64,000 nt of DNA, taken from Nitrospina sp. UBA6727 (lineage in GTDB: Bacteria; Nitrospinota; Nitrospinia; Nitrospinales; VA-1). Within the stretch, counting starts at the first letter, position 1. Each line of letters opens with the position of its first letter. Shown here in pieces: positions 8,695 to 47,825 of this stretch. The notes under the pieces are model-generated. The model ran no database searches, was not told the DNA's origin, and saw only the letters and a program-made list of their open reading frames with translations. Both the position numbers and the translations under genes were made by a program. The DNA lies in the NCBI GenBank assembly GCA_002454045.1, contig DKID01000004.1, forward strand, positions 6,259 through 70,258. The letters are read 5' to 3'.

Positions 8695-8771
8695 CGGGAT
8701 GTAGCGCAGCCTGGTAGCGCACTTGCTTCGGGAGTAAGGGGCCGGAGGTTCAAATCCTCTCATCCCGACCA
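8695..8771 (+). tRNA. tRNA-Pro (anticodon CGG), CCA encoded
   Basis: Hand-folded cloverleaf: acceptor CGGGATG/CATCCCG, D arm GCGC-AGCCTGGTA-GCGC, anticodon arm CTTGC-TTCGGGA-GTAAG, variable GGGCC, T arm GGAGG-TTCAAAT-CCTCT, discriminator A, CCA. It is near-identical in layout to my recollection of E. coli tRNA-Pro(CGG). Confidence 0.9.
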
Positions 8772-43699: not shown

Positions 43700-43969
43700 A
43701 TGAATAAAGCAAATAAAAACAAACTATTTCTTACTATCCTGATTTTTGCTGTATGCCTTTTTTCAGTAAATCTTTCCTCAGCATCCATGCACCATATGGA
43801 TAACTCCGACTGCATAATGCAAACGATATGTAGCAACTGTTTTATCTCTGCAGAAACCCCCTCCCATGATTTGGATTTTTCGGGTTCAGTTGTGTCGCAA
43901 GTTTTGGAAATCCAAATTTCAGTCCAGATCAATCGAACAGCTCCTCCCTCTCCCCCTCCAAAAATTTAA
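43700..43969 (+). CDS. Small secreted hypothetical protein with a His/Met/Cys-rich motif, immediately upstream of the CopA-type MCO
   Basis: The signal peptide is MNKANKNKLFLTILIFAVCLFSVNLSSA, followed by SMHHMDNSDCIMQTICSNC.. and a Pro-rich C-terminus. The region is AT-rich. The antisense ORF 43675..43932 has no comparable features. Confidence 0.4.
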   Translation: MNKANKNKLFLTILIFAVCLFSVNLSSASMHHMDNSDCIMQTICSNCFISAETPSHDLDFSGSVVSQVLEIQISVQINRTAPPSPPPKI

Positions 43970-44125
43970 TTTTCTCACTATTAACCATAAAAGTTTATTC
44001 ACCCTTTCGTTACCGTTTTGTCTAATTGCGCCTTTTTTCAGTATCTTAAATTAGGCTTTCTACGCTTACTGTTGGGATCTTGTCCAGCCGAGATTAGAGG
44101 AAATTGATTTAAAGGATCTAGCGTT

Positions 44126-46156
44126 ATGAAAAGATTAATTTATAGTTCATTCCTCCTGTTAACGCTCACCGGAATATTCGTGCCTTCCTGCTTCGCGGGC
44201 ATAGTCGAATATGATCTCAATATCAACTACAAGACCCTGAATATCACGGGCAAGAATGTAAGGGCCATGGCCTTAAATGATTCGGTCCCTGGCCCTACAC
44301 TACGCTTTCGTGAAGGGGATATAGCCCGAATCCGTTTCAAAAACAGCATGGATGTGGCAACATCTGTTCATTGGCATGGGATTCTTTTACCCTACCGCCA
44401 GGATGGCGTCCCTTATGTAGCCAATCCACCCATTGAACCAGGCGAAACAAAAGCTTTCGAGTTTCCTATTAAACAATCGGGCACCTATTGGTTTCATTCC
44501 CATACCGGCTTGCAAGAACAACGCGGTGTTTACGGATCTATCGTTATCACTCCCAAAGAGGGGGAACGGGTCTCCTCAGACAAAGATGAAGTAATAGTTT
44601 TATCCGATTGGACCAATGAAAACCCGAATGAGATATTGCGCACTTTAAAAAGTGGCAGTGACTATTACAGCTTAAAAAATGGCACCATGCAAAGCCTGTT
44701 GGGGGCGGCAAAGGAAGGTGCCCTCATGGATGTAACTAAACGCAGTTTAATGCGTATGCCGGCTATGGATGTTTCAGACGTTGTCTACGACTCCTTTCTT
44801 GCCAACGGAAAAGAGGAAACAACGATTCTAGCCAAGCCTGGGGAAAAAGTGCGCCTGCGTTTTATCAATTCTGCCACAGCCACTTATTTCTATCTTCAAT
44901 TTGCCGGTGGCCCGGTGCAAATCGTTTCTGCTGATGGTAAAGATGTCCAGCCGGTAAACGTAAATCGTTTTCTCATGGCTATCGCAGAGACCTATGACCT
45001 TCTTGTTACGGTACCTGAAAATGGTTCTTATGAGTTCCGAGCAACGGCTCAGGATGGCTCCGGGCACACATCTATCTTTATAGGCAGTGGAAAACGCATA
45101 TTGGCTCCCAACGTCCCTGAACCCAACCTCTATAAGATGAAAATGTCCATGAACCATGGCGCCGGCAAGAAAATGATGAACATGGATTCAAAGAATGCGG
45201 GTAATGAGCGTCCATTGTCCCCATACAAAAAACTGCGGTCTGTTGGCAAATCAACTTTACCCGAGAAAAATCCCACGCGAGAGGTGGTGCTCACTCTAAC
45301 AGGGGATATGGAGCGTTACATATGGTCCATCAATGGAGAAATCATTTCAGCTGATAATGTGATACGAATTCGCCATGGTGAGAATGTGAAATTTATACTT
45401 ATTAACAAAACAATGATGCACCACCCGATGCATCTGCATGGACATTTCTTTCGCGTTCTCAATGGACAAGGAGACTACTCGCCTCTCAAACACACCGTGG
45501 ATGTTCCTCCTTTGACTACACAAACCATCGAGTTTGAGGCCGATGAATACAATGACTGGTTCTTTCACTGTCATATCCTCTACCATGCAAGAGCTGGGAT
45601 GGCGCGTGTGGTCAGTTATGAGGACAAAGAATTGGACATGGACCTCAAAAAAATCCGTCATAAACTCTACAAAGATCCTTGGTATTCCACGATAACTGCA
45701 ACCGCCCAATCCCATATGACAGACGGCGCCGCGGTTTTCAGCAACTCCAAAAATATTCTAAGTACAACGTGGCAAGTCGGTTGGGAACGGGTTGACAAGA
45801 CAGAGCACGATGTGGAATTGGCTTATGACCGCTACCTCAACCGTTTTTTCAATGTGTTTGCCGGGGTAAACTTTACCAACGACTATGAACGCGGCATTTT
45901 TGGAATGCGATATCTTCTTCCATTTAATGTTGACAGCACGGTAAGAGTAGATAGCGAGGGAGAGTTTCGCGTTGAGTTAGAGCAAGGATTACAGTTAACC
46001 AGCCGCTTTGGGATTTTTGGCGATGTAGAATATGACACCGAGTCCAAGGAGGAGTGGTTGCTTGGCGGGAAATATATCCTGTCAAAAAACATGGCTCTGA
46101 CTGGCCAATACCATTCAGATTTCGGTGCGGGTGCCGGAATGGAATTTCGATACTAA
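44126..46156 (+). CDS. copA: CopA/PcoA-type three-domain multicopper oxidase fused to a CopB-like outer-membrane C-terminal domain
   Basis: The MCO copper motifs are HWHG, WFHSH, HPMHLHGHFF and HCHILYHARAGM. A Met-rich insert (MKMSMNHGAGKKMMNMD) is present. The last ~176 aa (nt 45626-46153) read ..AYDRYLNRFFNVFAGVNFTND..GMRYLLPFNVDSTVRVDSEGEFRVELEQGLQLTSRFGIFGDVEY..GAGAGMEFRY. This matches my recollection of the CopB/PcoB family core and ends in an aromatic OMP-type terminus. Confidence 0.8.
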   Translation: MKRLIYSSFLLLTLTGIFVPSCFAGIVEYDLNINYKTLNITGKNVRAMALNDSVPGPTLRFREGDIARIRFKNSMDVATSVHWHGILLPYRQDGVPYVANPPIEPGETKAFEFPIKQSGTYWFHSHTGLQEQRGVYGSIVITPKEGERVSSDKDEVIVLSDWTNENPNEILRTLKSGSDYYSLKNGTMQSLLGAAKEGALMDVTKRSLMRMPAMDVSDVVYDSFLANGKEETTILAKPGEKVRLRFINSATATYFYLQFAGGPVQIVSADGKDVQPVNVNRFLMAIAETYDLLVTVPENGSYEFRATAQDGSGHTSIFIGSGKRILAPNVPEPNLYKMKMSMNHGAGKKMMNMDSKNAGNERPLSPYKKLRSVGKSTLPEKNPTREVVLTLTGDMERYIWSINGEIISADNVIRIRHGENVKFILINKTMMHHPMHLHGHFFRVLNGQGDYSPLKHTVDVPPLTTQTIEFEADEYNDWFFHCHILYHARAGMARVVSYEDKELDMDLKKIRHKLYKDPWYSTITATAQSHMTDGAAVFSNSKNILSTTWQVGWERVDKTEHDVELAYDRYLNRFFNVFAGVNFTNDYERGIFGMRYLLPFNVDSTVRVDSEGEFRVELEQGLQLTSRFGIFGDVEYDTESKEEWLLGGKYILSKNMALTGQYHSDFGAGAGMEFRY

Positions 46157-46220
46157 GCCGTATTGATTCTATCTGAATAGATTGTTTTATTTATGCCCGT
46201 TTGCTATTCTGAGCCCTAGC

Positions 46221-46949
46221 ATGGAAACGTCTAAGCGAGAGCCTCTTTTAAGAGAATTAAAAGATTACCTCATCCATTTGAAGGACGCGGGGTATGTAGA
46301 AATTCCATGCGAAGCAGAGTTGCTGAAAAATTCCGCGCAGGCAACCGACTCTCCGAAACGCCCGTCACCCTCAAACGAAATGGCTGATAATAAATCCTTG
46401 ACGGCAGTGCGAAAAGAATTAGGCGACTGCACCCGTTGCAAACTTTCCACGAGCAGAAAAAATATCGTGTTCGGCGCGGGCAATCCCAACGCCAGTCTTG
46501 TCTTCGTCGGGGAAGGACCAGGCGCCGATGAGGACGAACAGGGGTTCCCATTCGTAGGTAGGGCGGGGAAAAAACTGACGGAGATTATTGAAAAAGGAAT
46601 GGGGCTGAATCGGGAAAAGGACACCTACATCTGCAACATCGTCAAGTGTCGCCCGCCGGGCAACCGCGACCCCGAAGCGGATGAAATTTCCGCCTGCAAA
46701 CCTTTTCTGATTCAGCAATTAAAAGCCATCAAACCCAAAGTCATCGTCGCTTTGGGGAAGCCCGCCGCGTCAACCCTTTTGGGACGGAACGTGCCGATCA
46801 CCAAGGAGCGTGGGACTTGGCACGAATACGAAGGCGTCAAGCTGATGCTCACCTACCACCCCGCCTATCTGATTCGGTTTCCTACTTTGGAAAACCGCAA
46901 AGCCGTCCACGAAGATGTCAAAAAAGTTCTACAAGAATTGAAAAAATAA
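46221..46949 (+). CDS. Family-4 (Fe-S) uracil-DNA glycosylase
   Basis: ..CTRCKLSTSRKNIVFGAGNPNASLVFVGEGPGADEDEQGFPFVGRAGKKL..CNIVKCRPPGNR.P..E...C..F.. is present. ATG 46221 is preferred. Confidence 0.9.
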   Translation: METSKREPLLRELKDYLIHLKDAGYVEIPCEAELLKNSAQATDSPKRPSPSNEMADNKSLTAVRKELGDCTRCKLSTSRKNIVFGAGNPNASLVFVGEGPGADEDEQGFPFVGRAGKKLTEIIEKGMGLNREKDTYICNIVKCRPPGNRDPEADEISACKPFLIQQLKAIKPKVIVALGKPAASTLLGRNVPITKERGTWHEYEGVKLMLTYHPAYLIRFPTLENRKAVHEDVKKVLQELKK

Positions 46950-47051: not shown

Positions 47052-47825
47052 TTATCGTTTCAGAATGCTCTGCGAAAAATAGCGGGCGGGGATGTCGATG
47101 TCAAATTCAATGTTGTCAAACTTGTAAACCGTTCGAGTATTTTCCTTAAGCATATCGCGAAAAATCATGGTGCGGGGAAACAAACGGTCGCCGATTTTTT
47201 CGTAATCCTCGAACAGGACTCTCTTCAAAAGTTTTCCGCTTTTAGCAAAACGTTCTTCTTTGAGGACGATGTTCTCCCCCTGATTGATCCATACCTGGCG
47301 AGTCTGGTAAGTCGTTTTTTTATCCCGGGCGAGCAAATTCAAAATGGCGCAACGAACGCCCGCGAAATCTTCGAAGCCCTGCGCAGAAAAAGTTGCGCGA
47401 TAAGAGTGGCTCAACTTGTGGTCTTCCATCATGTCTTCGTAAGACAAATCACTTCCCAACATTGACTGTCTGAGCAGATGGCCGGCGATCAGTATTTTCC
47501 TGTCGGTGCGCGGAGTGTACATCCAAAGTTTGTCGCCAATCTTGAGCATCTTCGTTCCCTTTTCGCGCGCCGGCGATTTGTAATAACTATACGAACGCGT
47601 GAAACCTTCCATCCACGAATCCTGGGTCAGCGTGCGTGTTTTTCGTCCGTTGTCAATGATGAGTCGGCCCGAAACAAATTTTGTTTCCGCCCAAAGATTT
47701 TCGTCCACCAACTCTAAAAGTTTTTGCGCGCTTATTTCTTCCGTAGCGCCAAGGCTTACAAAATAAAAAAAGAGTGACGGGAAAATCCCGGCGGCGAAAG
47801 TAATTTTATTTTTTACAGCCATCAT
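47052..47825 (-). CDS. LolA-like outer-membrane lipoprotein-sorting family protein
   Basis: A signal peptide is present. The C-terminal ..VWINQGENIVLKEERFAKSGKLLKRVLFEDYEKIGDRLFPRTMIFRDMLKENTRTVYKF.. is the pattern I associate with the LolA_like (outer membrane lipoprotein-sorting) family. Confidence 0.75.
   Translation of the reverse strand: MMAVKNKITFAAGIFPSLFFYFVSLGATEEISAQKLLELVDENLWAETKFVSGRLIIDNGRKTRTLTQDSWMEGFTRSYSYYKSPAREKGTKMLKIGDKLWMYTPRTDRKILIAGHLLRQSMLGSDLSYEDMMEDHKLSHSYRATFSAQGFEDFAGVRCAILNLLARDKKTTYQTRQVWINQGENIVLKEERFAKSGKLLKRVLFEDYEKIGDRLFPRTMIFRDMLKENTRTVYKFDNIEFDIDIPARYFSQSILKR

Follow-up and report, generated by a model that had tools for sequence, protein, structure and literature searches.

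Copper-resistance multicopper oxidases (MCOs) of the CopA/PcoA type are found alongside an outer-membrane protein of the CopB/PcoB type, and in the E. coli pco, P. syringae cop and Caulobacter pcoAB systems the two proteins are encoded by two genes. PcoB is a 12-stranded barrel with both termini on the periplasmic side, and its pore is an open electronegative funnel without a helix plug (PMC9210255). It is said to accompany PcoA always, and in Caulobacter the pcoA and pcoB genes are translationally coupled (PMC9210255, PMC12509749). The disordered N-terminal tail of PcoB stabilises the periplasmic PcoA, and docking of the two has been proposed (PMC12509749). A fused PcoA-PcoB was mentioned in one sentence for five Legionella species in 2012 (PMC3548706). 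Here we describe a gene from Nitrospina sp. UBA6727 (GCA_002454045.1, contig DKID01000004.1), located on the plus strand at positions 44126..46156 of a stretch of 64,000 nucleotides that was analysed as a whole and is referred to below as the window. Very probably its product is a genuine fusion, in which a CopA-type oxidase is joined to a CopB-like outer-membrane barrel.

The window protein resembles the CopA/CopB pair in oxidase type, copper ligands and Met-rich loop, in a homologous barrel and in the functional pairing of oxidase and barrel. It differs in being one polypeptide instead of the products of two genes, in having a Sec-type leader where PcoA and CopA have a Tat leader, and in the size of the barrel, which measures about 156 aa with trimmed loops as against ~215 aa in CopB/PcoB. 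Where PcoB has a disordered, His/Met-rich N-terminal tail, the window protein has a linker of about 22 residues that is not enriched in His or Met, and the pcoCDRSE neighbours of the pair were not found in the window. In the Legionella fusion, as in the window protein, a single open reading frame (ORF) encodes an MCO at the N-terminus and a CopB-type barrel at the C-terminus. However, the L. fallonii protein has as its barrel a canonical CopB, matched by Pfam at 86 bits over 186 aa, while the barrel of the window protein is short and is not called by Pfam. The L. fallonii protein also differs in its length of 958 aa and in a Met-rich tandem repeat, (NMKMDS/NMKTDS)n, that is very long. With the start that is annotated for this protein (WP_084602265.1; plasmid II, locus L036, 4040-6916) there is no signal peptide, and the true start may lie upstream. 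In view of the Legionella precedent the architecture as such is already known; the window protein is a divergent short-barrel variant of it, belonging to a separate and larger set, and no description of this variant was found in the literature searched.

The gene starts with ATG and continues for 676 codons, followed by the stop, with zero internal stops. The encoded protein begins with a Sec-type signal peptide, identified by inspection (residues 1-24, MKRLIYSSFLLLTLTGIFVPSCFA, with predicted cleavage before the following G; 44126..44197). A complete three-domain MCO of the CopA/PcoA type then spans residues 26-497. Its cupredoxin domain 1 (residues 33-145; 44222..44560) was matched by Pfam Cu-oxidase_3 at E 3e-43 and contains the motifs HWHG (82-85) and WFHSH (122-126). 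Domain 2 (residues 155-310; 44588..45055) was matched by Cu-oxidase at E 3.8e-20, and domain 3 (residues 382-500; 45269..45625) by Cu-oxidase_2 at E 1.6e-37, the latter containing HPMHLHGH (433-440) and HCHILYHARAGM (481-492). Between domains 2 and 3 lies the Met-rich stretch YKMKMSMNHGAGKKMMNM (residues 336-353; 45131..45184). The oxidase is followed by a linker (residues 498-520, YEDKELDMDLKKIRHKLYKDPWY; 45617..45685), the length of which is fairly constant in the family, and by the CopB/PcoB-like barrel module (residues 521-676; 45686..46153), which ends in the beta-signal-like strand GAGAGMEFRY (residues 667-676; 46124..46153) with its G-x-G, alternating hydrophobic residues and terminal aromatic. 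The first-pass annotation had described a 676-aa ORF comprising a complete MCO and, in the same frame, a tail of ~176 aa (nt 45626-46153) ending in ..GMEFRY. All of the motifs it quoted were located, the tail and its ending were confirmed, and the matches to the three Pfam Cu-oxidase families agree with a complete MCO.

All four copper-ligand motifs (HxH, HxH, HxxHxH and HCHxxxHxxxxM) are present, and 32 aligned orthologues show no variation at the ligands; many positions of the barrel are likewise invariant among them. By far the best NCBIfam model for the protein was TIGR01480 (copper_res_A, copper resistance system multicopper oxidase), at 439.7 bits. The Met-rich stretch is the least conserved segment of the mature protein (identity 0.49); what is established for CueO and PcoA suggests that it serves as a Cu(I)-binding loop, of a type known from the CopA/PcoA/CueO cuprous oxidases. 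The Nitrospina multicopper oxidase of the literature, an MnxG-like protein from the nxr cluster that is described as akin to the Mn oxidase of Bacillus SG-1, is by this description presumably a different protein.

The identity of the tail was addressed by comparisons at the level of its family. Taken alone, the tail of the window protein matched Pfam CopB (PF05275) with 21.6 bits (E 1.7e-4), the whole protein with 17.2 bits; OMP_b-brl was also matched weakly by the tail alone. A profile built from seven tails was searched against 1.84 billion cluster representatives and retrieved 317 clusters (50% identity) at E <= 1e-3. Among 148 newly retrieved best matches that were examined, at least 56 have MCO motifs upstream in the same chain. 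The others are mostly short fragments, while four look complete and standalone, with a signal peptide of their own. The short-barrel tail family is placed almost always C-terminal to an MCO. Three standalone-looking tails of 185 aa (P0121, P0128 and P0134) start at an internal Met of the sequence ..HARAGMARVV.. and were rejected as split versions, being truncated gene calls. P0211, P0268, P0279 and P0286, of 175-219 aa and with their own signal peptide, look like minimal CopB-like barrels without an oxidase.

An alignment of 63 diverse tails provided the profile for comparison with the PDB, Pfam and a CopB/PcoB alignment, and for hydrophobicity analysis. The best natural match in the PDB was PcoB (7pge; E 0.0026), accompanied by de novo designed transmembrane barrels, among them the 179-residue TMB12sol9_3, the name of which suggests 12 strands. 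Pfam CopB was matched by 28 of the 63 tails at E <= 0.1 (best 7e-7), and the remaining weak Pfam matches were exclusively to outer-membrane barrel families. When the profile was aligned by hhalign with an alignment of 13 non-redundant CopB/PcoB sequences, a probability of 96.6% (E 6e-10) was obtained over 112 columns, placing tail residues 59-167 (profile columns 64-175) on PcoB residues 139-270; reversal of either alignment reduced the probability to 2.3% and 3.8%. In this alignment the acidic pore residues E187 and E207 of PcoB stand opposite D603 and E619, positions that are weakly conserved in the family. These results uphold the first-pass suggestion that the tail follows a CopB core pattern.

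Family-averaged hydrophobicity showed a strict alternation, with 10-12 amphipathic segments in ~156 aa joined by very short polar turns. The last segment conforms to GxGxGΦxFxF/Y, its residues G669 and G671 are invariant in the 63 diverse tails, and the C-terminal residue is Y, F or W in 138 of 140 full-length fused proteins, in agreement with the reading of ..GMEFRY as a beta-barrel terminus. We conclude, on the strength of these profile comparisons, that the tail is a remote and loop-trimmed homologue of CopB/PcoB, representing a divergent, shorter subfamily that is non-canonical by Pfam.

The fusion recurs in independent assemblies. Among 5.8 billion proteins searched there were more than 100 homologues, 63-100% identical to the window protein and covering 97-100% of it; they come mostly from metagenome-assembled genomes (MAGs) of Nitrospina/Nitrospinota, some of them on contigs of 2.7 and 3.25 Mb. 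Scanning the tail profile against species-representative genomes yielded 31 loci, and in 24 of these oxidase and tail are covered by one ORF, which has 665 codons or more. The rest are mostly contig-end fragments or visibly broken assemblies, one (L031) being a remnant of 47 codons. Conservation extends across the junction, the mean pairwise identity in the orthologue alignment being 0.72-0.78 for the oxidase domains, 0.64 for the linker and 0.68 for the barrel. In most of 182 proteins, HCH and the C-terminus lie 191-222 residues apart (median 196). A helix in the linker was predicted in low-confidence models only. No second, internal signal peptide was found in the fused protein, whereas a separate CopB carries one. 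Because the continuous ORF and its conservation recur across independent assemblies, the loss of a stop codon or a frameshift is very unlikely, and the fusion is real and conserved.

The remnant locus lies on a Nitrospinales MAG chromosome (OZ242182.1, 2075-6141). Its syntenic slot (argS, a 105-aa ORF ... uracil-DNA glycosylase) retains the last 47 codons of the barrel and is occupied by a minus-strand envelope cassette of ~4 kb. The first gene of the cassette encodes a secreted His/Cys protein of 145 aa ending in ..IDHPPRFA, and the rest encode proteins of 376 aa, 199 aa (with a WCGAC motif, thioredoxin/TlpA-like by look) and 274 aa. It looks as if the fused gene had been replaced here by another cassette.

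Outside the Nitrospinota, the genome scan found the fused architecture in Methylococcales, Thermodesulfovibrionia/Nitrospirota, Verrucomicrobiaceae, Planctomycetota, Alphaproteobacteria and Halieaceae. It is also present on plasmids of cultured Spirosoma, Hymenobacter, Fibrella, Pontibacter, Mucilaginibacter, Flavobacterium, Ornithobacterium and Ilyobacter, so that the lineages include Fusobacteriota and, via plasmids, many Bacteroidota. Some of the plasmid-borne fusions adjoin P-type ATPases, metal sensors or two-component systems. The fusions are annotated merely as 'multicopper oxidase (domain-containing protein)'. The first-pass view that a barrel-tethered oxidase would be a distinctive architecture has to be given up to this extent, since the fusion is widespread across phyla and had been reported in 2012.

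The absence of a twin-arginine motif from the leader peptide was confirmed by reading the sequence. In the fused family a Tat-like regular expression was matched by 2 of 140 full-length proteins, and both matches were judged spurious on inspection. The unfused comparators, in contrast, show clear twin-arginine motifs (..SRRTFLKG.. in PcoA and ..SRRRLLKG.. in Halomonas CopA). Fused proteins throughout the family thus carry Sec-type leaders instead of Tat-type ones. Sec export of the fusion makes sense, because the barrel must arrive at the barrel assembly machinery (BAM) unfolded; with the switch from Tat to Sec, the oxidase would consequently fold and gain its four coppers in the periplasm.

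A further ORF of 89 aa precedes the fused gene at 43700..43969 (+). It begins with a Sec-type signal peptide, MNKANKNKLFLTILIFAVCLFSVNLSSAS, as judged by inspection, continues with MHHMDNSDC-x5-C-x2-C and a variable middle part, and ends in ..PPSPPPKI. It is separated from the fused gene by a spacer of 156 nt (43970..44125) with a putative Shine-Dalgarno sequence AAAGGA at 44112-44117. The ORF is kept in the same position upstream of the orthologous MCO-barrel gene in seven Nitrospinota loci (L004, L008, L010, L011, L012, L013 and L028), and an alignment of the seven homologues shows an invariant M-D-x2-[DE]-C-x5-C-x2-C and an invariant C-terminal P-P-K. The replacing cassette at L031 likewise opens with a small His/Cys protein. 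It matched no curated family: there was no Pfam match at E <= 0.1, DUF2946 included, and no NCBIfam match.

These features recall CutF of the Rhodobacter capsulatus cutFOG operon, which ends in GPPPRL (PMC9973294, PMC8456105). In that organism copper bound to nascent exported CutF prolongs a polyproline pause, which opens the ribosome-binding site of the oxidase gene; the definition of CutF-like proteins allows Cys-containing variants, and DUF2946 has CxxC (PMC9973294, PMC8456105). By the published rule set, CutF-like proteins are <150 aa long, have a signal peptide and a Cys motif, contain PP among their last 15 residues and are followed within 1000 nt by a metal-homeostasis gene on the same strand (PMC9973294, PMC8456105). 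The leader ORF fits this rule set in length, signal peptide, terminal PP and the MCO-barrel gene 156 nt downstream, and its invariant Cys motif is C-x5-C-x2-C in place of CxxxC. In common with CutF it is small, bears a Sec signal and a Cys motif, has PPPKI where CutF has GPPPRL, and lies directly upstream of an MCO gene on the same strand. It differs from CutF in the spacing of the cysteines (Cx5CxxC as opposed to CxxxC), in the lack of a DUF2946 match, in that its oxidase is apparently Sec-exported whereas the CutF-linked one is Tat-exported, in that no stem-loop shielding the Shine-Dalgarno sequence was detected, and in having a host outside the Pseudomonadota. By this analogy, we regard the case for a CutF-like copper-sensing leader at 43700-43969 as evenly balanced; such a leader would probably act by Cys-dependent, polyproline-mediated ribosome pausing.

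In our working model the fused protein is synthesised as a single polypeptide that would be exported by Sec, crossing the inner membrane unfolded. BAM would insert the barrel so that its two ends face the periplasm, like those of PcoB, and the oxidase would fold and take up copper in the periplasm. The covalent linker of about 22 residues may take the place of PcoB-tail docking and keep the oxidase at the barrel's periplasmic mouth, where the oxidation of Cu(I) would be coupled to Cu(II) crossing the outer membrane. The fusion would thereby hard-wire the PcoA-PcoB partnership, which elsewhere depends on two translationally coupled genes and on PcoB's disordered N-terminal tail. By analogy with R. 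capsulatus, translation of the oxidase in Nitrospinota is probably tied to periplasmic copper by the CutF-like leader. An oxidase situated at the periplasmic mouth of the barrel and performing Cu(I) oxidation is the most likely arrangement. For the reading as a whole, that is a Sec-exported cuprous oxidase-barrel fusion including periplasmic orientation and copper function, we hold a modest preference, rather better than even.

Several other explanations were weighed against this one. Adjacent copA and copB genes could be made to look fused if a stop codon or a frameshift between them were lost through a sequencing or assembly error, and a single error would suffice in a case such as that of Halomonas sp. 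THAF12. On its plasmid pTHAF12_a (L001, 3836-6403) copA and copB are in the same frame, apart by a stop codon and 9 nt, and tblastn with the window protein ran from Halomonas copA through into the annotated copB in that frame. This pair shows how near a split arrangement can be to a fusion, yet its CopB retains a signal peptide of its own. The fused proteins lack such an internal signal peptide, their linker is conserved at the protein level, and the same continuous ORF is present in more than 100 independent assemblies as well as in finished plasmids of cultured strains; the probability of an artefact is negligible. Another proposal, raised in part by the first-pass annotation, which had seen a possible lipobox in ..VPSCFAG, is that the oxidase is anchored as a lipoprotein through Cys22 (..VPSC..) and that the tail is an accessory domain. 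VPSC is loosely lipobox-like, and a lipobox regular expression was matched by 2 of 140 family members. However, the consensus [LVI][ASTVI][GAS]C is not present at the end of the leader peptide, where VPSC has an atypical Pro at -2, and close orthologues have Gly or Ser where the Cys would be (PSGFAG/APSGFAG, SSSAG/ASSSAG, PSSFAG), while distant ones also lack it. Moreover, ..CFA before G agrees with what signal peptidase I requires under the -3/-1 rule, with the mature oxidase fold starting 2-3 residues further on. Because the Cys is unconserved and the site suits signal peptidase I, the lipoprotein idea was rejected as highly improbable. The tail might instead be a soluble, periplasmic beta-rich domain, for example a metal-binding or Fn3-like one, that resembles CopB by convergence. 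The sub-threshold Pfam CopB score and the low-confidence three-dimensional models would accord with this, as would a repeat protein of 4678 aa (P0187) that weakly matches profile positions ~28-96 many times. The repeats of P0187 score 0-16 bits each with very high bias, though. The ~30 repeats look like an Fn3-type motif (W..V..A..Y.[IL]D[IV]A.D..F), and the summed match was judged spurious. The profile-profile probability, set against its reversed controls, the secondary Pfam and PDB matches, which are all to transmembrane barrels, the strict hydrophobic alternation and the GxGxxFxF-type terminus with its terminal aromatic also argue against a soluble domain, to which we attach little credence.

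More weight was given to an alternative that accepts the barrel and inverts the orientation. In an autotransporter-like or Cyc2-like protein the linker would thread the pore, and the oxidase would face outwards to Cu(I), Fe(II) or Mn(II). The order of parts is that of type Va autotransporters, with a Sec leader, an N-terminal passenger, a short and possibly helical linker and a C-terminal barrel. Canonical CopB members do match the Autotransporter beta-domain weakly (the Halomonas CopB with E 1.6e-6), and some CopBs are named 'autotransporter domain-containing' by NCBI. The window tail, unlike these, gave no match to this domain (PF03797), which was touched by 1 of the 63 family tails (E 0.0024) as compared with 28 for CopB. 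One proposal casts PcoAB as a porin-MCO unit that oxidises metals, with Cyc2 of iron oxidisers as a precedent for a fused redox domain and porin (PMC5566968). Cyc2 resembles the window protein in the fusion of an N-terminal redox domain to a C-terminal outer-membrane barrel, by analogy only; it has heme c in place of four coppers and a barrel of an unrelated family, and its redox domain is thought to reside inside the barrel (PMC5566968). The presence of the fused family in Nitrospinota, Nitrospirota and Methylococcales would also suit an oxidase at the surface. On the other side, the split systems have PcoA in the periplasm, where the tail of PcoB stabilises it, the pore of PcoB is an open funnel without a helix plug, the linker is near the minimum length for spanning a barrel, and the Met-rich loop and CopA-type signature are those of cuprous oxidases. 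An outward-facing oxidase is in our judgement unlikely. The same holds, a shade more strongly, for its extended form, in which a self-inserting surface metal oxidase for Cu(I), Fe(II) or Mn(II) would serve nitrite oxidisers, methanotrophs and Bacteroidota, with CutF-like gating in Nitrospinota.

A number of observations weigh against the periplasmic oxidase-barrel fusion favoured here. The TIGR01480 score is just under the curated cut-off of 478.95, and for the single sequence the Pfam CopB match is under the gathering threshold of 27 bits; in the HMMER comparison with PF05275 that had been proposed at the outset, the relationship therefore stands at family level (28 of 63 members), while the tail of the window protein itself, at 21.6 bits, falls short. 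Structure prediction with AlphaFold2 gave a pLDDT of 33 for the tail with an alignment of seven sequences, and of 50 for the full-length protein with 32 close orthologues, the tail being below 50 throughout. Because both runs, on shallow alignments, were of low confidence, 12 strands, as in PcoB, are no more than plausible for the predicted barrel. The direction of copper transport by PcoB is disputed, with uptake (PMC9210255) set against efflux (PMC12509749). No other cop/pco genes were found by tblastn in the window, and the neighbours are housekeeping genes such as argS and a family-4 uracil-DNA glycosylase gene, so that the role in copper resistance is deduced from family membership and not from context. 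As to the leader ORF, the spacer was no more stable in its predicted fold than shuffled sequences (z +0.56) and showed no conserved RNA structure across five loci, which aligned poorly; a hairpin shielding the Shine-Dalgarno sequence, as in cutF-cutO, is for these reasons unsupported.

Downstream, the uracil-DNA glycosylase gene (46182-46949, +; TIGR00758, 189 bits) starts 25 nt past the stop codon of the oxidase gene and is followed by a LolA-like outer-membrane lipoprotein-sorting gene (47052-47825, -); neither has an evident link to copper. Further neighbours of the fused gene are argS and a small conserved ORF. Promoter and terminator scans around the gene gave site counts no higher than in shuffled sequences. 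The sole Rfam match at the gathering threshold in the window was a tRNA gene (8695-8768, +).

There is nothing categorically new in the window protein, and its value lies in the evidence for PcoA-PcoB coupling, in the switch from Tat to Sec and in an unannotated family of short CopB-like barrels. This barrel family, with at least ~300 clusters at 50% identity, is not called by Pfam CopB, and the proteins therefore carry no annotation beyond 'multicopper oxidase domain-containing'. If the leader ORF is correctly assigned as CutF-like, this mode of regulation would reach into the Nitrospinota and would apply to an oxidase exported by Sec. The coincidence of the fusion with the Tat-to-Sec switch bears on the maturation of MCOs, that is on folding and four-copper loading in the periplasm. 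The fusion also offers a simpler, single-polypeptide system in which topology and transport direction may be studied, and cultured strains of Spirosoma, Hymenobacter, Ilyobacter and Ornithobacterium possess it. For the cooperation of PcoA and PcoB, a widespread and strongly conserved covalent fusion is Rosetta-stone evidence that oxidase and barrel act as one physical unit.

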